Shown: one piece after another, positions 4,835-39,049 of the stretch
Layout: every line of letters begins with the position of its first letter
Position numbering within the stretch: position 1 is the stretch's first letter
From: Escherichia phage vB_Eco_F27
Length of the DNA stretch: 64,000 nt
Sequence record: OP870146.1
Reading direction: 5' to 3' (one strand)
Notes under the pieces: generated by a model
The model's input: only the letters and a program-made list of their open reading frames with translations
Told to the model about the DNA's origin: nothing
The model's database searches: none
Position numbers and translations under genes: made by a program

Positions 4835-6817
4835 ATGGCACTTCTCTCTCCGGGCGTTGAGCTCAAAGAAACTACCGTACAGAGTACTGTAGTTAATAAC
4901 TCCACTGGTACTGCTGCCCTGGCTGGAAAATTCCAATGGGGACCTGCATTCCAGATTAAACAAATCACTGATGAAGTTGCATTGGTTGATATGTTTGGTA
5001 CTCCTAATACAGATACAGCAGATTATTTCATGTCTGCTATGAACTTCCTTCAATATGGTAATGACCTTCGTGTTGTACGCGCAGTTGATCGTGATACTGC
5101 TAAGAACTCATCTCCTGTAGCAGGCAATATTGAATTCACAATCTCTGCTGCTGGTAGTAACTATGCAGTTGGTGATAAAATTATCGTTAAGTATTTGACC
5201 GAAACTGTTGAAGCAGATGGTTATGTCACTTCAGTTGATGTCGATGGTAAAATTCTTAACATTTATATCCCAACCGGTAAAATTATTGCTCGTGCAAAAG
5301 AAATTAATGAATATCCGGCATTGGGTTCTAACTGGACCGCCGAAGTTGCCAGTTCTTCTTCTGGACTCTCTGGCGTTATTACAATTGGTTCTATCGTAAC
5401 CGATTCAGGTATTCTGTTAACTGAAGTTGAAACTTCTGAAGAAGCTATTACTTCTCTAACTTTCCAAGAATCTATTAAAAAATATGGTGTCCCGGGCGTA
5501 GTTGCTCTTTATCCTGGTGAACTTGGCGACCAGCTCGAAATTGAAATCGTATCTAAAGCAGACTATGACAAAGGTGCTTCAGCCCAGTTAAAAATTTATC
5601 CTGATGGTGGTACTCGTGCATCTACGGCTAAAGCAATCTTTGGGTATGGCCCACAAACTGATGACCAATATGCAATTATCGTTCGTCGTAACGATGCTGT
5701 AGTTCAGAGCGTAATTCTTTCTACTAAACGCGGTGAACGCGATATTTATGGTAGTAATATCTTTATTGATGATTTCTTTGCTAAAGGCGCAAGCAATTAT
5801 ATTTTCGCTACTGCACAAGGTTGGCCAAAAGGTTTCTCTGGCGTAATCAAACTGGGTGGTGGCTTATCATCTAATGAAACGGTTGACGCTGGTGATTTAA
5901 TGGAAGCTTGGGATTTGTTTGCTGACCGCGAATCTGTTAATGCGCAGTTGTTTATTGCCGGTTCTTGTGCAGGTGAATCTTTAGAAGTTGCTTCTACAGT
6001 TCAGAAACATGTTGTAGCAATTGGTGATTCTCGCCAAGATTGCTTGGTTCTTTGCTCACCACCACGTGCAACTATAGTCGGTATTCCTGTTAATCGTGCA
6101 GTTGATAATCTGGTTGATTGGCGTACTGCGTCAGGAACTTACACTGATAATAACTTTAATGTAAGTTCTACTTACGCGGCTATTGATGGTAACTATAAAT
6201 ATCAATATGACAAATATAATGATGTGAATCGTTGGGTTCCATTAGCTGCTGATATTGCTGGTCTTTGTGCTCGCACAGACAATATTTCTCAGCCTTGGAT
6301 GTCTCCTGCCGGTTATAACCGTGGACAAATTCTTAACGTTATTAAGCTTGCAATTGAAACTCGCCAAGCGCAGCGTGATCGTTTGTACCAGGAAGCTATT
6401 AACCCTGTTACTGGTACAGGTGGTGATGGGTATGTTCTGTACGGTGATAAAACTGCCACTTCTGTTCCTTCACCATTTGACCGTATTAACGTTCGTCGTT
6501 TGTTCAATATGGTTAAAACGAACATTGGTTCAGCATCTAAATATCGTCTGTTTGAATTGAACAACGCATTTACCCGTTCTTCTTTCCGTACAGAGACTTC
6601 TCAATATCTACAGGGTATTAAAGCTCTCGGTGGTGTATATAACTTTAAAGTTGTTTGTGATACTACCAATAACACCCCAGCAGTTATCGACCGTAATGAA
6701 TTTGTAGCTACTTTCTACTTACAACCTGCCCGCTCGATAAATTATATTACGTTGAACTTTGTAGCAACAGCAACTGGTGCCGATTTCGACGAACTGATTG
6801 GTGCTGTAGGTAGTTAA
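4835..6817 (+). CDS. 18: Tail sheath protein gp18
   Basis: 660 aa (T4 659 aa); preceded by a TATAAATA late promoter. Confidence 0.9.
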   Translation: MALLSPGVELKETTVQSTVVNNSTGTAALAGKFQWGPAFQIKQITDEVALVDMFGTPNTDTADYFMSAMNFLQYGNDLRVVRAVDRDTAKNSSPVAGNIEFTISAAGSNYAVGDKIIVKYLTETVEADGYVTSVDVDGKILNIYIPTGKIIARAKEINEYPALGSNWTAEVASSSSGLSGVITIGSIVTDSGILLTEVETSEEAITSLTFQESIKKYGVPGVVALYPGELGDQLEIEIVSKADYDKGASAQLKIYPDGGTRASTAKAIFGYGPQTDDQYAIIVRRNDAVVQSVILSTKRGERDIYGSNIFIDDFFAKGASNYIFATAQGWPKGFSGVIKLGGGLSSNETVDAGDLMEAWDLFADRESVNAQLFIAGSCAGESLEVASTVQKHVVAIGDSRQDCLVLCSPPRATIVGIPVNRAVDNLVDWRTASGTYTDNNFNVSSTYAAIDGNYKYQYDKYNDVNRWVPLAADIAGLCARTDNISQPWMSPAGYNRGQILNVIKLAIETRQAQRDRLYQEAINPVTGTGGDGYVLYGDKTATSVPSPFDRINVRRLFNMVKTNIGSASKYRLFELNNAFTRSSFRTETSQYLQGIKALGGVYNFKVVCDTTNNTPAVIDRNEFVATFYLQPARSINYITLNFVATATGADFDELIGAVGS

Positions 6818-6828
6818 TAAGACGCCTG

Positions 6829-6850
6829 ATGGGCTATTTCGGTAGCCCAT
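6829..6850 (+). terminator. Stem-loop after gene 18 (possible terminator or RNA stability element)
   Basis: ATGGGCTA-TTTCGG-TAGCCCAT 8-bp stem; no clean U-run follows. Confidence 0.4.
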
Positions 6851-6857
6851 ATAAATA
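6850..6857 (+). promoter_or_regulatory. Late promoter (TATAAATA) for gene 19
   Basis: Exact TATAAATA in the 18-19 intergenic region, just after a stem-loop. Confidence 0.7.
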
Positions 6858-6929
6858 TACTATATCGTTTAAAAATTAATTCTATGGGCATCCGGTTAAT
6901 CCTAAGCCCATATTACTACAGAGGCTAAT

Positions 6930-7421
6930 ATGTTTGTAGATGACGTAACTCGCGCCTTCGAATCTGGTGATTTCGCTCGCCCTAACCTGTTCGAAGTAGA
7001 AATCTCTTATCTTGGGCAAAACTTTAGCTTCCAGTGTCGTGCTACGGCTCTTCCTGCTGCGATCGTTGAAAAGGTTCCTGTTTCTTATATGAACCGTAAA
7101 ATTAACGTGGCCGGTGATCGTACATTCGATGATTGGACTATTACAGTAATGAACGATGATGCTCATAGCATTCGTCAGAAATTTGTTGATTGGCAAGGTA
7201 TTGCAGCAGGACAAGGTAATGAAATTACCGGTGGTAAACCTGCTGAATATAAAAAGTCTGCTATCGTTCGTCAATTTGCTCGTGATGCTAAAACGGTCAC
7301 TAAAGAAGTTGAAATTGTCGGCTTGTGGCCTACTAACGTTGGCGAAGTATCTCTTGATTGGGATTCGAATAACGAGATTGAAACGTTCGAAGTAACTCTT
7401 GCTCTTGATTGGTGGGAATAA
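6930..7421 (+). CDS. 19: Tail tube protein gp19
   Basis: 163 aa (T4 163 aa); late promoter upstream. Confidence 0.9.
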   Translation: MFVDDVTRAFESGDFARPNLFEVEISYLGQNFSFQCRATALPAAIVEKVPVSYMNRKINVAGDRTFDDWTITVMNDDAHSIRQKFVDWQGIAAGQGNEITGGKPAEYKKSAIVRQFARDAKTVTKEVEIVGLWPTNVGEVSLDWDSNNEIETFEVTLALDWWE

Positions 7422-7469
7422 TCTGGTTGGGGAGAAATCCCCAGCTTCCCGTGATGACGGAGAAGTCCA

Positions 7470-7477
7470 TATAAATA
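7470..7477 (+). promoter_or_regulatory. Late promoter (TATAAATA) for gene 20
   Basis: Exact TATAAATA 29 nt upstream of the gene 20 ATG. Confidence 0.7.
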
Positions 7478-7505
7478 TAACTATAATTCCCATTCGGAGA
7501 ATACA

Positions 7506-9077
7506 ATGAAATTTAATATCTTAAGTTTGTTTGCTCCATGGGCAAAAATGGACGAACGTGATTACAAAGACCAAGAAAAAGAAAATTTAGAATCTATCAC
7601 CGCACCAAAATTAGATGACGGCGCTAAAGAATACGAAGTATCTGAAAATGAAGCACAGCAAACATATAATGCTATGTTTCAGAGAATGTTCGGTAGTCAA
7701 GAACCAGGGCTCAAATCAACCCGTGAATTAATCGATACGTATCGAAATTTGATGACGAACTATGAAGTGGATAATGCAGTCTCCGAAATAGTTTCCGATG
7801 CTATCGTATATGAAGATGATACAGAAGTCGTTTCTATAAATTTAGACAACACAAAATTTAGTCCAAATATCAAATCAATGATGTTGGATGAATTTAACGA
7901 AGTGTTAAATCATTTATCTTTCCAACGTAAAGGTTCAGATCATTTTAGACGTTGGTATGTGGATTCTCGAATTTTCTTCCATAAAATTATTGACCCTAAA
8001 CGCCCCAAAGAAGGTATTAAAGAGCTTCGTCGTTTAGACCCACGTCAAGTTCAATATGTCCGTGAAGTTATTACAACCACTGAAGCCGGTGTTAAAATAG
8101 TCAAGGGTTATAAAGAATATTTCATTTATGACACATCACACGAATCTTATGCTTGTGATGGTCGCATATATGAAGCTGGCACAAAAATAAAAATCCCTAA
8201 AGCCGCGATTGTTTATGCCCATTCTGGTTTAGTTGATTGTTGTGGTAAAAATATCATCGGTTATTTGCATCGGGCTATTAAGCCAGCGAACCAATTAAAA
8301 CTTCTTGAAGATGCTGTCGTAATTTATCGTATTACTCGTGCTCCCGATCGTCGTGTATGGTACGTTGATACAGGTAATATGCCTTCAAGAAAAGCAGCCG
8401 AACATATGCAACATGTTATGAATACGATGAAAAACCGTATTGCATATGATGCTACTACAGGCAAGATTAAAAACCAGCAGCATATTATGTCGATGACCGA
8501 AGATTATTGGTTACAACGACGTGATGGTAAAGCAGTAACAGAAGTTGACACATTACCAGGTGCAGATAATACTGGAAATATGGAAGATGTACGTTGGTTC
8601 CGTAATGCGCTTTATATGGCTTTACGTATTCCTATTACCCGTATTCCAAGTGACCAAGGTGGTATACAGTTTGATGCTGGTACTTCTATTACACGAGATG
8701 AATTGACATTTGGTAAATTTATTCGTGAGCTGCAACATAAATTTGAAGAGATATTCCTAGACCCGCTTAAAACTAATTTAATTCTTAAAGGAATTATTAC
8801 AGAAGATGAGTGGAATGATGAAATAAATAATATTAAGATAAAATTTCATCGGGATAGTTATTTCTCGGAATTAAAGGATGCTGAGATTCTGGAGCGTCGC
8901 ATTAATATGCTTCAGATGGCCGAACCATTTATTGGTAAATATATTTCTCACAGAACAGCTATGAAAGATATTCTTCAGATGTCTGACGAGGAAATTGAAC
9001 AAGAGGCTAAGCAAATTGAAGAAGAGTCGAAAGAGGCTCGTTTCCAAGACCCCGACCAAGAACAAGAGGATTTTTAA
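7506..9077 (+). CDS. 20: Portal vertex protein gp20
   Basis: 523 aa (T4 524 aa); late promoter upstream. Confidence 0.9.
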
Positions 9078-35905: not shown

Positions 35906-35935
35906 AAACGCACAAAAGGGAGACCGAAGTCTCCC
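35906..35935 (-). terminator. Intrinsic terminator after the 59-aa basic ORF
   Basis: Minus strand GGGAGACTTCGGTCTCCC followed by TTTTGTGCGTTT. Confidence 0.75.
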
Positions 35936-35940
35936 TAAAA

Positions 35941-36120
35941 TTATGCAACAACCTTTCCAAAACGAGAAGCATCATCTCGAAGAACTGCACGTGCTCTGCG
36001 CATGATCTTCTCAACTGTTTGATTAATACGAGAGTTCGACCCACGCTTGTATCCAGCGCGTTTAGAGGTACCATCAACTTTCTTTTCAACTGCTTTCTTT
36101 GCTTTAGCTTGTTTTGCCAT
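35941..36120 (-). CDS. Small lysine/arginine-rich basic protein, 59 aa (not in ORF track)
   Basis: Hand-translated: MAKQAKAKKAVEKKVDGTSKRAGYKRGSNSRINQTVEKIMRRARAVLRDDASRFGKVVA; followed by a GGGAGACUUCGGUCUCCC-U-run terminator. Confidence 0.45.
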   Translation of the reverse strand: MAKQAKAKKAVEKKVDGTSKRAGYKRGSNSRINQTVEKIMRRARAVLRDDASRFGKVVA

Positions 36121-36414
36121 TATAAATTCTCTTTAAATGAAAATGCAGGACTTATTGACATTGCCTGCGCAAGCCCTCAATGGGAACATAGGTTTTGGAT
36201 ATTTAACGACAGGATAACCATAAACCCGTCATCATACCAACCACGACTTAGACAGATAACCTTTTTCTGACGCGTGATAGTACAAAATACATTCAAGAGG
36301 TACACCGTAAAACTGTCGGGGTCTTAAAACTATAATGATTCGCAAATCATTAATCAGACAGTTCGACGGCTCCTCGATTTTCTAGCCGCACTAAGGTAGC
36401 GAATCACCTAAAAC

Positions 36415-36663
36415 TTATTTAAGGGTAATAACAAAATGACGTACTGCTTTACGAGCGGCTGAAGCCAGAGGCTTAGCATATTTCAGTTCATCTTTTGCTT
36501 CCAGTTCAGAGGCCAAAGCTGCCTGTACCGGGTTCAGATGTTTGAAATATCGCAGGATTTCCAGTGCTTCGGCTTCAACATCAATCGACGCGCCGTAGTT
36601 TTCGTGACCGTTATTCCATGCGTTGCGTTGCAGTTCAAGAGCGTGTTGTAATTGTTTAATCAT
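36415..36663 (-). CDS. rIII: rIII lysis inhibition accessory protein
   Basis: 82 aa, same as T4 rIII; adjacent to gene 31; late promoter upstream. Confidence 0.8.
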   Translation of the reverse strand: MIKQLQHALELQRNAWNNGHENYGASIDVEAEALEILRYFKHLNPVQAALASELEAKDELKYAKPLASAARKAVRHFVITLK

Positions 36664-36779: not shown

Positions 36780-36787
36780 TATTTATA
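36780..36787 (-). promoter_or_regulatory. Late promoter (TATAAATA on minus strand) upstream of rIII
   Basis: Reverse complement of TATTTATA immediately after the gene 31 stop. Confidence 0.5.
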
Positions 36788-37486: not shown

Positions 37487-38057
37487 AAAAGTTTCGGATT
37501 TGTTCCCAATTCAGAGAACGAAGATTATTACGAGAGTACTGAATTACTTCAATACCGGCTTGTTTTAGAATGTCTGCCCAATTTTCAGGAGATCTGTCAT
37601 ATAATTCTGCGTATACAACCTTTTTAATACCTGACTGCGTAATAGCTTTAGTGCAATCAGGACATGGAGAAAGTGTCGTATACAACGTAGCACCTTCAAT
37701 AGAATTACCTTTACGAGCTGCAAACAAAATTGCATTCAATTCCGCATGGATTTCGTTATTAGCAGACCATGCACTATGAGCAGCCCGATGTTCTTTAGCC
37801 AAAACAAAATTATCCACCCGTCCAAATGCTGTAGTGCCTTCTTTAGGCCCAGCAACGATGACCGGGCTTGGTTTATTCTTCAACCAACCGTTTTCGGATG
37901 CATGTTCGCAACAGTTTGTACCACCTGAAGGAGAGCCATTATAACCTGTAGAAATAATGCGTCCATCTTTTTCAATGACGGCACCAACTTTCCATGAACA
38001 ACATTTTGATTCTTGAGAAATCAAATAAGCAATTTGAAGATATGTGCTAGCTTTCAT
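37476..38057 (-). CDS. cd: dCMP deaminase
   Basis: 193 aa (T4 Cd 193 aa); zinc-binding deaminase motifs HAE and PCxxC. Confidence 0.9.
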   Translation of the reverse strand: MKASTYLQIAYLISQESKCCSWKVGAVIEKDGRIISTGYNGSPSGGTNCCEHASENGWLKNKPSPVIVAGPKEGTTAFGRVDNFVLAKEHRAAHSAWSANNEIHAELNAILFAARKGNSIEGATLYTTLSPCPDCTKAITQSGIKKVVYAELYDRSPENWADILKQAGIEVIQYSRNNLRSLNWEQIRNFCGE

Positions 38058-39049
38058 TATTGAACCTTATTAATATAAGTTAACAGCTCTTTAGTTTGTT
38101 CCCAACTGATGCACGCATCGGTAACGGAAACGCCATAGGACATATTATCAGAAATTTTTTGATTTCCTTCATGTAGGAATGATTCTATCATAATTCCTTT
38201 GACCAAATCATTAGCTGCTAAATTTTTACCAATACCAATTTGATTGCTATAATGCCCAGCAGCGTTTGCATGGCTACAGTCAACCATTACATAATGATTC
38301 AGACCTACTGCACTTGCTTTGTTAGAAGCTTCTTGAATATCAGAAGAATGATAGTTCGGGCCGTTAGTCCCGCCACGCAATACGATATGCGTATTCTGAT
38401 TACCTTCAGCTTCAACAATGCCTACAGTACCATCGACGTCCATACCCATATACCGATGAGGCCAGGCGGCACTATACATCGCGTCTGTAGCTACTTTAAT
38501 AGAACCATTGGTTGCGTTCTTGAAGCCTACGCACATCGGTAGACCTGAAGCAATTTCACGATGTGTCTGACTTTCAGTCGTACGGGCGCCAATAGCAACC
38601 CATGAGAAAATACCAGAAAGATACTTAATCGTGAATGGGTCTAATACTTCAGTTGCTAATGGAAGTCCCATACGTAGAAGTTTACGACACAATGTTCGTG
38701 CAACTATAAGACCGTGGTTCATATCAAAACTTCCATCAAGATATGGATCATTTACAAGACCTTTCCAACCTACGGTAGTTCGAGGCTTTTCAAAATAAAC
38801 GCGCATCACTAACAGAACATTAGGAAGACGAGTTTGAAGTTCAGCCAGACGTTTGCCGTATTCAACAGCAGCAATAGGGTCATGAATTGAACAAGGACCT
38901 ACAACAATAAGTTTGCGTGGGTCTTCACCGTTCATAATCGAATTAACTTGTTCGCGATGAGAAGCCACTTGTGATGCGTAAGCTTCCGACAAAGGAATAA
39001 TCTCAGCCAGTTCTTTTGGAGAAATAAGTTTTCCGACGACAGGTAACAT
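38057..39049 (-). CDS. 3-deoxy-7-phosphoheptulonate (DAHP) synthase, class I AroG/F/H-like
   Basis: 330 aa; roughly half the residues match E. coli AroG as recalled, including GPCSIHD, VMRVYFEKPRTTVGWKG, IGARTTESQ(T/V)HRE, GFKN, ESxLxEGNQ, ITDACI; 1-nt overlap with the cd start. Confidence 0.85.
   Translation of the reverse strand: MLPVVGKLISPKELAEIIPLSEAYASQVASHREQVNSIMNGEDPRKLIVVGPCSIHDPIAAVEYGKRLAELQTRLPNVLLVMRVYFEKPRTTVGWKGLVNDPYLDGSFDMNHGLIVARTLCRKLLRMGLPLATEVLDPFTIKYLSGIFSWVAIGARTTESQTHREIASGLPMCVGFKNATNGSIKVATDAMYSAAWPHRYMGMDVDGTVGIVEAEGNQNTHIVLRGGTNGPNYHSSDIQEASNKASAVGLNHYVMVDCSHANAAGHYSNQIGIGKNLAANDLVKGIMIESFLHEGNQKISDNMSYGVSVTDACISWEQTKELLTYINKVQ

Follow-up and report, generated by a model that had tools for sequence, protein, structure and literature searches.

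A ToxI-like unit and conserved RNA structure modules in the rIII/30.9 intergenic region of a T4-like phage

The ORF-free island studied here lies in a 64-kb window, i.e. the whole stretch of 64,000 nucleotides analysed from Escherichia phage vB_Eco_F27 (OP870146.1). This 294-bp island is the rIII/30.9 intergenic region of a T4-like phage (Mosigvirus). Its minus strand, which is the sense strand for both rIII and 30.9, is assembled from structured RNA modules, which were gained, lost, and reordered among phages. One module, M0, is homologous to ToxI. ToxI is a pseudoknotted RNA antitoxin by which the endoribonuclease ToxN is kept inactive, and ToxIN is a toxin-antitoxin system of type III that also constitutes an abortive infection system. 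M0 is an orphan phage-borne copy of ToxI, not a toxin-antitoxin locus. On balance, the island probably represents a transcribed ToxN decoy (M0) joined to a structured leader in the 31-rIII-30.9 operon.

Genomic context and coding capacity of the island

The stop codon of rIII (36417-36415, minus strand) is separated by 294 nt from the ATG of a 59-aa basic ORF (36120, minus strand), and the limits of the island given in the initial annotation (36121-36414) are exact. The features of the region are as follows.

36780 to 36787, minus strand: TATAAATA upstream of rIII (the plus strand reads TATTTATA), taken as the T4 late-promoter consensus
36415 to 36663, minus strand: upstream gene rIII, encoding a lysis inhibition accessory protein (ORF list; phrog_1457, 3.8e-43; T4 annotation)
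36377 to 36412, minus strand: M0, single ToxI-like unit (pseudo-ToxI), AGGUGAUUCGCUACCUUAGUGCGGCUAGAAAAU (blastn, model R2, covariation)
36290 to 36378, minus strand: M1, about 89 nt, three stacked stems (RNAalifold)
36239 to 36288, minus strand: M3, hairpin module, GUACUAUCACG..CAGA-AAAAGGUUA-UCUG..CGUGGUUGGUA (MFE fold)
36182 to 36238, minus strand: M4, H-type pseudoknot (covariation; model R1)
36168 to 36187, minus strand: M5, candidate short hairpin, GUUCCCAUUGAGGGCUUGCG (alignments)
36145 to 36168, minus strand: M6, GCAGG-14 nt-CCUGC, last hairpin before the ribosome-binding site (sequence)
36121 to 36144, minus strand: A/U-rich spacer with the Shine-Dalgarno-like AAAGAG (~36134-36129) of 30.9 (sequence)
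35941 to 36120, minus strand: gene 30.9 homologue, 59-aa basic protein, the downstream gene (phrog_1427, 2.4e-31; T4 annotation)
35918 to 35939, minus strand: GGGAGACUUCGGUCUCCC followed by UUUU, terminator-like hairpin ending the 31-rIII-30.9 unit (sequence)

The gene order 31 - rIII - 30.9 - 30.8 - 30.7 shows the same synteny in T4, where the rIII/30.9 spacer is 244 bp long, as compared with 294 bp here. The gp30.9 homologue matched no Pfam family. An intergenic spacer of 120-416 bp was found at the same position in all of the distinct relatives examined (57/57), and 773 phage records matched the island in blastn searches; the presence of the island across phages is therefore beyond chance. 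Neighbouring genes had been described as less than 60 bp apart. However, the immediate gaps are larger (124 bp between 31 and rIII, 130 bp between 30.9 and 30.8), and the island is the longest local gap, not a unique one.

The absence of any ORF above about 18 codons, as initially annotated, does not hold when alternative start codons (GTG and TTG) are admitted. The island contains ORFs of 42 aa (GTG, 36177-36305, minus strand), 37 aa (TTG, minus strand), and 26 aa (ATG, plus strand), and a plus-strand ORF of 83 aa that begins with TTG extends into it. The 42-aa ORF is the longest in the sense direction and is annotated as a hypothetical protein in some GenBank records. Its C-terminal half is frame-shifted by a 1-nt indel in RB69 and the relatives L016 and L030; the corresponding segment is missing from T4. 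Comparison with the relatives revealed no conserved reading frame among the island ORFs. The reported lack of promoter consensus was borne out, as the scan called no sigma-70-like promoter and TATAAATA is absent from the island; MotA-box middle promoters were judged by eye only. No terminator was called inside the island by the scan. The island is thus non-coding, with no promoter and no gene remnant.

The island is situated within the rIII-30.9 transcription unit. The TATAAATA element upstream of rIII, which we take to be the known T4 late-promoter consensus and hence presumably a promoter, would drive late transcription through the island. Transcription through the island is predicted from the positions of this promoter and of the terminator-like hairpin only. 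The GGGAGACUUCGGUCUCCC hairpin with its UUUU tract was overlooked by the simple terminator scan, and its Rfam matches were confined to the terminator portions of two sRNA models.

With Rfam 15 at gathering thresholds, no matches were obtained in the window or in seven related loci, and only chance-level matches appeared in two slices at E values up to 10. The Rfam scan proposed earlier was thus run and found no family; as Rfam 15 misses even genuine ToxI arrays, this negative is uninformative for ToxI. ARAGORN identified no tRNA or tmRNA genes in the window.

The ToxI-like unit M0

Only nt 15-59 of the island, corresponding to M0, matched a set of 72,556 plasmids in blastn searches. The plasmid matches form tandem arrays (up to 13 per record), which lie directly upstream of annotated ToxN/AbiQ toxin genes and on the same strand as them. 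A covariance model (R2), built from bacterial ToxI only (14 units from 7 plasmid toxIN loci), gave a single match in the 64-kb window, at 36377-36412 on the minus strand (38.7 bits, E 8e-6). M0 is 84-86% identical to bacterial ToxI units of subtypes A and B. It contains the core hairpin CGC-U-AC/GU-GCG, and its 3' end is the AAAU at 36380-36377.

The core stem of ToxI consists of the pairs U9:A25, G10:C24, C11:G23, A13:U22, and C14:G21 (numbering of PMC3475682). In 19 distinct phage and bacterial units, this stem is paired in 100% of 95 cells, as compared with 0-59% in slid controls; two of the pairs show compensatory changes, and in T4 one pair is G.U. M0 reads ...GUGCGG-C-U-AGAAAA, and both C27 and U28 are kept. 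These two bases make contact with ToxN; either C27G or U28A alone abolishes antitoxicity, and both changes occur in the pseudo-ToxI of phage PhiTE (PMC3475682). The U9C/A25G change and the extra 3' A of M0 are common to natural type B and C arrays. The loop of M0 is 2 nt shorter than the canonical ToxI loop.

The region of the rIII stop codon, UUAAAUAAG, provides an AAAU (36420-36417) on the 5' side of M0. The AAAU motifs at 36420 and 36380 flank a 40-nt fragment containing M0; if cut at the nearest AAAU, M0 would have a 5' tail of 9 nt, not 4. The processing sites are AA^AU for the P. atrosepticum ToxN and GAAAU for the E. coli ToxN. The exact GAAAU was not found in the island, which has GAAAAU instead, as do natural type B and C ToxI arrays. 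Judged by homology, M0 is one complete ToxI unit.

M0 is present once in the window and once in every T4-like relative that carries it, whereas bacterial loci have 2-13 units. Downstream of M0 lie the modules M1-M6 and 30.9, without a ToxN homologue or the terminator and toxN of a toxIN locus. The searchable literature describes no ToxI-like unit for T4-like phages.

The M0 units of different phages resemble different bacterial subtypes. The units of the window and L034 best match ToxI subtypes A/B (86-89%), those of L017, L019, and L022 match Enterobacter type C (81-87%), and that of L037 matches E. coli pCV839 type E1 (86%). Near-perfect single ToxI units were found in 241 phage records, unrelated phages among them; in the latter, one unit has its own TTGACA-17-TATAAT promoter, and another is followed by a terminator. 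The matches to differing subtypes and the near-perfect single units in 241 records are evidence that the resemblance to ToxI is selected, not accidental. M0 is absent from RB69 and about 40% of the relatives; in RB69 it is missing through a clean indel of ~33 nt relative to the window. The T4 copy is divergent (at most 75% identity to any sampled subtype, 22.5 bits), and blastn found no match to it in E. coli genomes. The T4 copy may have decayed rather than been retargeted.

Structure and distribution of the other modules

Covariation on the sense strand was found in three modules (M0, M1, and M4), in line with the structured small RNA or long 5' leader that was among the candidates of the initial annotation. 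The folding energy of the whole island gave z = -1.19 on the sense strand, which is no outlier, and z = -2.70 on the antisense strand, which deviates more. Folding energy alone does not support structure; the modules were assigned to the minus strand because of covariation and G.U pairs.

M1 consists of the stems GAGG/CCUC and GCCGU..ACUGUC / GACAGU..ACGGU, and the hairpin AAUGAUU-UGCG-AAUCAUU. Its positions are paired in 99.1% of cells (25-62% in slid controls), and five pairs are changed on both sides, which was matched by 0/500 shuffles. Invariant G.U pairs tie the structure to the minus strand. The sole GGAG of the island, a RegB-type motif, is located at 36373 within M1.

Stem 1 of M4 pairs GACGGG (36230-36225) with CCUGUC (36213-36208). 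The pseudoknot is formed between the loop UGGUU (36220-36216) and AACC (36194-36191), with a long A-rich connecting loop, CGUUAAAUAUCCAAAA; the loops of M4 are 2-3, 2, and 15-16 nt long. In a set of 13 pairs and 30 distinct sequences, M4 was 82.2% paired (32-50% in slid controls), with a covariation of 0.396 (at most 0.12) and 66 doubly changed cells (9-17). The covariance model R1 found a single M4 in the window (70.8 bits). M4 occurs once in nearly every relative (54/57), and its distance to the 30.9 start varies from ~80 to 300 nt among phages. It directly adjoins M0 in five lineages; in L088, M4, M0, and a possible pseudoknot M8 are arranged head to tail with A-rich linkers between them.

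M4 was also found in the tRNA clusters of two unrelated phages (L082 and L098), and tblastn of the flanks detected neither rIII nor 30.9 near these copies. In L082, it occupies a 58-nt spacer between two tRNAs, the next of which begins 3 nt after the pseudoknot. There is no Rfam family for M4. No bacterial counterparts of M1, M2, M3, M4, or M8 were identified by blastn among plasmids and 5,426 E. coli genomes. When 185,579 species genomes were scanned for the pattern, 17 single matches were obtained, about the chance estimate; all scored at most 19 bits with R1, and none were tandem. A looser pattern gave only chance matches in viral contigs.

Several other identities of M4 were considered and set aside. 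The T4 stable RNAs C and D gave no match. A small upstream ORF (AUGAUG...UAA, 10 codons) is broken in L012, L017, L023, and L037, and the elements required of HDV-like, hammerhead, or preQ1-I RNAs are missing, as judged by eye. It is also extremely improbable that M4 belongs or is related to the pistol class of self-cleaving ribozymes (RF02679), in which case it would process the rIII-30.9 transcript. M4 does share with pistol a hairpin whose loop pseudoknots with downstream sequence, and the hairpin is followed by an A-rich linker, CGUUAAAUA. A matching linker is presumably present in the env25 pistol sequence. Pistol RNAs are often phage-associated, as M4 is, and are defined by P1, pseudoknot, P2, P3, a GU cleavage junction, and 10 conserved nucleotides (PMC4604425). 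However, the pistol Rfam model did not match a 171-nt slice even at E values up to 10; P2, P3, and the GU junction are not conserved in M4, and the sequence 3' of the pseudoknot is unrelated between phages. The pistol assignment was rejected, as only the P1-like hairpin and the pseudoknot are present.

The evidence is weakest for M3, which is present in 14/57 relatives, including RB69 but not T4; its inner stem CAGA/UCUG is changed to CAGC/GCUG in L003 and L024. The candidate hairpin M5 recurs elsewhere in the spacer, directly after the rIII stop in L012, L023, L024, L027, L037, and L088. M6 corresponds to the inverted repeat GCAGGCAATGTCAATAAGTCCTGC of the initial annotation, which was located at 36168-36145 on the minus strand. 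A compensatory swap from A:U to U:A occurs in M6 of L021 and L026. In other lineages, among them L008, L017, and L023, its position is taken by unrelated, longer hairpins. M6 was not scored as a terminator by the scan.

Possible functions and known systems

The processing of M0, its binding to ToxN, and any phenotype are predictions here. Infection would shut off host transcription, the unstable host ToxI would decay, and ToxN would be released. The phage transcript, made early, middle, and late, may then supply M0 as a ToxI look-alike. By cutting at the AAAU motifs on either side (36420 and 36380), ToxN could excise M0, and the excised RNA would re-bind and block ToxN of the matching subtype, so that abortive infection would be blunted. 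The modules M1, M3, M4, and M5/M6 before the ribosome-binding site of 30.9 probably together form a structured leader. Their most likely role is in RNA processing or stability and in the control of 30.9 translation; a further decoy function of M4 is possible.

Several observations count against a decoy. M0 is a single unit here, as opposed to the 2-13 units of bacterial ToxI genes. Wild-type PhiTE, with 1.5 repeats, was unprotected, and expansion of the array was needed (PMC3475682). T4 has its own M0 copy, yet plasmid-borne E. coli toxIN restricts it strongly; it escaped toxIN by amplifying the protein inhibitor tifA, with no other escape route in the passages searched, and RB69 was the least toxIN-sensitive among T2, T4, T6, and RB69 (PMC9391042). 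The divergence of the T4 copy, the shorter loop of M0, its 9-nt 5' tail, the missing exact GAAAU, and the ordinary folding energy of the sense strand also weigh against a decoy. M0 cannot explain the lower sensitivity of RB69, because RB69 lacks it.

Some of these observations also fit a cis-acting leader or processing region, whose hairpins and pseudoknot control stability, processing by RegB, RNase E, or RNase III, and 30.9 translation, with M0 as a neutral and now functionless scar of recombination with toxIN plasmids. This seems unlikely. In its favour, the island lies directly before the 30.9 ribosome-binding site, with a hairpin just upstream of that site in every lineage, and the GGAG target of RegB described for T4 early mRNAs (PMC9409239) is matched by GAGGAG, which is invariant in M1, and by GGGAG in M2. 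The autoregulatory leader pseudoknot of T4 gene 32 provides a precedent (PMC10690425). M0 is dispensable, as shown by RB69 and the other relatives without it (~40% of relatives), and T4 is toxIN-sensitive despite its copy. Yet a neutral scar should decay, whereas compensatory changes maintain the stem of ToxI, and C27 and U28 are retained. The variants match different bacterial ToxI subtypes, and intact units occur in unrelated phages with their own promoter or terminator. Because the distance of M4 to the 30.9 start is variable (~80 to 300 nt) and M4 is also found between tRNA genes elsewhere, a role of M4 tied to 30.9 translation is disfavoured.

The whole island might instead be a set of decoys, in which M4, together with M8 and M2 in relatives, mimics other type III antitoxins (CptIN, TenpIN, or unsampled ToxIN systems); this we consider improbable. 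The crystallised type III antitoxins are all H-type pseudoknots with single-stranded tails, and CptI has a long A-rich second loop (PMC5086642); in ToxI homologues, loops of 3-4 nt and 1-2 nt are combined with a long variable one (PMC3401426). The layout of M4 (H-type; loops of 2-3, 2, and 15-16 nt) resembles these antitoxins, but H-type layouts are common among RNA pseudoknots generally. The head-to-tail array of L088 and the five lineages in which M4 abuts M0 would suit a series of decoys, and tRNA processing in L082 would presumably release M4 as a discrete small RNA. Against this, M1-M4 and M8 have no bacterial counterpart in the plasmids and E. coli genomes searched, and the matches in the 185,579 genomes were at chance level. 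M0-like repeats, and no M4-like ones, are present at each of the four divergent enterobacterial ToxN loci that were sampled. That the island is the relic of a decayed gene, or a site acting at the DNA level (replication origin or recombination hotspot), as also suggested among the candidates of the initial annotation, is very improbable. The automatic annotation of the 42-aa hypothetical protein in some records, and the clean junctions at which modules were shuffled, duplicated, and deleted (such as the 33-nt M0 indel in RB69), would fit such an origin. However, no frame is conserved, as seen from the 1-nt indel shift; the variation is compensatory for RNA stems, and the invariant G.U pairs exist on the sense strand only. 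There was no direct support for a replication or recombination site. No T4 replication origin is known to lie near rIII. The module shuffling between phages shows that recombination acted on module borders during evolution.

With the decoy-leader combination still as the preferred reading, a wider proposal may be put forward, although it is unlikely as it stands: the rIII/30.9 spacer of T-even-type phages could be a dedicated RNA anti-defence slot, fixed in the genome, in which small decoy RNAs with pseudoknots are collected, swapped, and retargeted, with M4, M8, and M2 acting as decoys for other RNA-guided or RNA-neutralised defences. If so, the ToxI mimics would be matched to the ToxIN subtype of local hosts, and tRNA operons of unrelated phages would be a further source of M4-type decoys. 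Experimental evidence of RNA mimicry of a type III antitoxin has so far come from a single Pectobacterium phage (PhiTE), and in that phage only after selection in the laboratory. If M0 is active, hundreds of T4-like phages, with hosts spanning E. coli, Klebsiella, Enterobacter, and Yersinia, would carry such mimics as a standing natural trait, as would unrelated phages of Salmonella and Erwinia; the mimics would lie at a fixed locus and match different ToxIN subtypes. An RNA layer would be added to the ToxIN/TifA arms race studied in T4, and the host range of therapeutic T4-like phages might be easier to predict. M4 and M1 are in any case conserved structured RNAs without an Rfam entry, in one of the best-studied virus families.

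Among the known systems, M0 is close to the pseudo-ToxI of PhiTE (Blower et al. 2012, PMC3475682). Both are phage-borne non-coding ToxI copies that depart from canonical ToxI in several of the same ways, namely by the compensatory U9C/A25G change, a shorter U-loop, and one additional A at the 3' end, and the proposed action of both is RNA mimicry that would neutralise ToxN. However, wild-type PhiTE has 1.5 out-of-phase repeats and no full unit, and protection requires that the locus expand to 2.5-5.5 repeats or capture real ToxI (PMC3475682); M0 is a single unit, complete and in phase, and retains C27 and U28, both of which are mutated in PhiTE. M0 is also embedded in an mRNA spacer among structured modules, unlike the PhiTE element, and the host phages differ (T4-like Mosigvirus and rv5-like, respectively). 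With the ToxI of P. atrosepticum pECA1039 and of small E. coli plasmids, M0 shares 84-86% identity over 36 nt, the core stem, the A-rich 3' tail ending in AAAU, and the orientation relative to transcription. Unlike ToxI, it is unrepeated, lacks the terminator plus toxN, is not bacterial, and has the loop shortened by 2 nt.

Similarly, M4 and the T4 gene 32 leader pseudoknot are both H-type pseudoknots in T4-family mRNA leaders, with covariation and no Rfam model (PMC10690425). They have no sequence similarity, and M4 differs in that its distance to the start codon is not fixed, it also occurs between tRNA genes in unrelated phages, and it has no known binding protein. The PeSL cassettes of the hyperplastic regions of T4-type genomes (Arbiol et al. 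2010) reportedly combine a strong early promoter with a terminator hairpin. Like these cassettes, the island consists of small recurring intergenic modules, which apparently mediate shuffling between T4-type genomes. Unlike them, it has no promoter or terminator in the scans, and it is made up of covarying pseudoknots and multi-stem RNAs.

The rIII/30.9 spacer and its modules

The minus-strand gene order around the island, cd - 31.1 - 31 - rIII - 30.9 - 30.8 - 30.7, is that of T4. Among named phages, RB69-like coliphages such as mogra and JK45 are the nearest, at 99% identity. The rIII/30.9 intergenic region, which is the island, is 294 nt long in the window, 244 nt in T4 (NC_000866 130541-130784), and 263 nt in RB69. 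The initial annotation placed it exactly (36121-36414), and the inverted repeat it mentioned is present at 36168-36145. Its neighbour gaps of under 60 bp do not hold at the flanks of the island, where the gaps are 124 and 130 bp. Its limit of ~18 codons on any ORF is exceeded by mechanical ORFs of 42, 37, and 26 codons if GTG/TTG starts are allowed, one of which some GenBank records list as a hypothetical protein. These ORFs were rejected as genes: in RB69 and in two other loci (L016 and L030), a 1-nt indel shifts the frame of the 42-aa ORF over its C-terminal half, and the segment carrying this ORF is missing from T4.

As had been noted, the island contains no late-promoter consensus; the scan also found neither a sigma-70-like promoter nor a terminator inside it. 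Together with TATAAATA upstream of rIII (36787-36780) and a GC hairpin with trailing U's downstream of 30.9 (35939-35918), this suggests that the island is transcribed within the 31-rIII-30.9 message. The product of the downstream gene, gp30.9 (35941-36120, minus strand), is a strongly basic protein of 59 aa (phrog_1427, no Pfam family), always encoded directly downstream of the structured spacer. Elsewhere in the window, a 330-aa ORF adjoining dCMP deaminase (38057-39049, minus strand) encodes a class I DAHP synthase (Pfam PF00793, 251.8 bits), which catalyses the first step in the synthesis of aromatic amino acids. There is no such gene at the equivalent position in T4 and RB69; it therefore seems to be an auxiliary metabolic gene.

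The island was found by blastn in 773 phage records. The rIII-to-30.9 spacers from IMG/VR, metagenomes, T4, and RB69 comprise 57 distinct sequences, 120-416 nt long. Their alignment showed no single conserved block; the spacer is a mosaic of modules that vary by phage in presence, order, and copy.

Order of modules in the window
36412-36377, minus strand: M0, ToxI-like unit
36378-36290, minus strand: M1
36288-36239, minus strand: M3
36238-36182, minus strand: M4, H-type pseudoknot
36187-36168, minus strand: M5
36168-36145, minus strand: M6
36144-36121, minus strand: ribosome-binding region, end of the island

Regular-expression search located M4 in 54 of the 57 spacers, M2 in 32, M0 in 30 (and in four more by the bacterial ToxI model or by eye only), M1 in 23, and M3 in 14. 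M2, which takes the place of some window modules in relatives, is an RNA of ~135 nt in three domains, including a hairpin with a GAAA loop. In some phages (L028, L035, L046, and L047) M1 and M2, the larger of the two, form a tandem; they have the motif GACCC...ACGGUGU in common and their stems are arranged alike, which suggests that they are paralogous RNAs. M7 and M8 also recur in the spacers of relatives. M7 (L008 1135-1200, L014, and L042) folds as a hairpin whose loop is UGUACG, with GGUAAC after it. M8 (L012, L024, L037, and L088) reads ACGGCUCUAUGC...CCGU...UAGAGC, with a U-run after it in some phages, and could be drawn as another H-type pseudoknot.

Covariation in M1 and M4

The structural case for the island rests on covariation and ToxI homology, not on thermodynamics: the whole-island folding energy does not stand out on the sense strand (z = -1.19; antisense, z = -2.70). 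The initial annotation was essentially right in what it observed, and right in its candidate of a structured RNA. In M1, 99.1% of cells are paired (14 distinct copies), and five pairs are changed on both sides, a number reached by 0/500 shuffles. Several invariant G.U pairs fix the strand. This covariation is real but shallow, because the copies are 92% identical. The sole GGAG of the island, the target motif of RegB (PMC9409239), lies within M1. M3, M5, and M6 show anecdotal compensatory changes only.

M4 aligned well over 30 distinct copies. The proposed fold has a 6-bp stem and a 5-7-bp pairing of the hairpin loop with sequence 15-16 nt downstream. Paired cells were 82% (32-50% in slid controls), doubly changed cells 66 (9-17), and the covariation score 0.396 (<=0.12). 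The pseudoknot partners include GUUGGUU/AACCAAC, GUAGUU/AACUAC, GUGAG/CUCAC, CAAGGUU/AAUCUUG, and GAUGG/CCAUC. The M4 covariance model had a single match in the window, at 70.8 bits, and a single match in T4. It also found M4 in two uncultured phages that are unrelated: in L082 (IMGVR_UViG_3300020045_002265) M4 is exactly the 58-nt tRNA-Asp/tRNA-Pro spacer (58.5 bits), and in L098 it lies after tRNA-Met (37 bits). These copies next to tRNAs suggest that M4 is an autonomous small RNA module. The L082 cluster (5800-8700) has 12 tRNAs and several unannotated spacers of 75-420 nt, which may hold further small RNAs; beside it are a 473-aa "RNA-binding protein" (phrog_850) and two HNH endonucleases.

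The likeness of M4 to the pistol ribozyme breaks down at P2, P3, and the cleavage junction. M4 is a conserved pseudoknot without a catalogue entry. The M4 loops are 2-3, 2, and 15-16 nt, the last one A-rich, a layout general to type III antitoxin pseudoknots (PMC5086642, PMC3401426). No bacterial counterpart was found in plasmids and E. coli genomes by blastn, or in species genomes by pattern scan; a decoy role of M4 would therefore be speculation.

Identity of M0 with ToxI

The M0 sequence AGGUGAUUCGCUACCUUAGUGCGGCUAGAAAAU resembles the 36-nt ToxI repeat. When the PLSDB plasmids were compared with the island by blastn, M0 was the sole segment matched, in 59 plasmids and at <=13 tandem places per record. 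Three plasmid loci were retrieved (P. atrosepticum pPA21A, an E. albertii plasmid, and E. coli pTA141-2), whose repeats share 84-86% identity with M0 of the window. The pTA141-2 repeat, AGGTGATTTGCTACCTTTAAGTGCAGCTAGAAATTT, agrees with the ToxI numbering of Blower et al. 2012 (U9, U16-18, A25, C27, U28; PMC3475682). A model built from 14 bacterial units of seven loci only found exactly one site in the 64-kb window (36377-36412, minus strand; 38.7 bits, E ~8e-6) and its counterparts in T4 and several relatives, with no match in RB69. The Rfam scan of the island was silent because Rfam 15 does not recognise even genuine ToxI arrays.

Across 19 distinct phage and bacterial units, 100% of the core-stem cells are paired, with compensatory changes at two pairs (C:G, U:A, and A:U; G:C and A:U). 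The T4 unit has a G.U pair in this stem, possible on the minus (sense) strand only. M0 of the window keeps C27 and U28, and changes at each of these abolish the antitoxic activity of the PhiTE pseudo-ToxI (PMC3475682). AAAU motifs, the cleavage context of ToxN, flank M0 at 36420 and 36380 as candidate processing sites. M0 is an orphan ToxI unit in a modular, pseudoknot-rich leader.

Spread of the unit and the decoy reading

Four further ToxN homologues, which share only 37-42% identity with the E. coli toxin, each have their own ToxI subtype; they come from Enterobacter, Klebsiella, E. coli pCV839-15-p3, and Pantoea. The M0 variants of different T4-like phages match different bacterial subtypes best.

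Best bacterial ToxI match of phage units
Window and L034 units: subtype A/B, 86-89% identity
Klebsiella-phage unit (L008): subtype A, 84% identity
L017, L019, and L022 units: Enterobacter type C, 81-87% identity
L037 unit: E. coli type E1, 86% identity
T4 unit: type E2, 74-75% identity, a weak match; no closer match found in E. coli genomes

A canonical unit occurs in 241 phage records, including unrelated phages and uncultured contigs. Near-perfect single units directly follow a coding sequence in Erwinia phage IT22 (38/38 nt) and in Salmonella phage 7-11 (NC_015938; L132 2426-2462; 35/35 nt), where an intrinsic terminator comes next. A 74-kb viral contig (IMGVR_UViG_3300044259_000056; L129 1800-1960) has a TTGACA-17-TATAAT promoter immediately 5' of a near-perfect unit, and a second, degenerate one; by sequence, this locus resembles a stand-alone pseudo-ToxI gene of a non-T4-like phage. 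RB69 (L104 8590-8606) differs from the window (36417-36375) by a clean ~33-nt indel that leaves it without the unit (UAAGU|AAAUCGAGG in RB69). The junction lies within the A-rich motifs flanking the unit, and the two spacers are otherwise nearly identical. Patchy presence, horizontal spread, kept pairing, and subtype matching are as would be expected of an accessory counter-defence element, and speak against M0 being a mere scar. The hypothesis raised is that T-even-type phages carry, at a fixed locus, decoys matched to subtype.

An active decoy has to be weighed against M0 being a single unit only, whereas PhiTE escaped ToxIN only after expansion of its 1.5 out-of-phase repeats (PMC3475682). 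In one study (PMC9391042), T4 was strongly restricted by plasmid-borne E. coli toxIN although it carries a unit, and escaped via the amplified protein inhibitor tifA; RB69, without M0, showed the lowest sensitivity among the four T-even phages tested. M0 is therefore neither necessary nor sufficient in general. These data do not refute the decoy idea, since the T4 unit is divergent and a canonical-subtype match is not expected of it. A term search of the accessible Laub- and Salmond-laboratory papers found no mention of a ToxI-like unit in T4-like phages. Judged by its likeness to the bacterial units, M0 is probably a further case of phage antitoxin-RNA mimicry.
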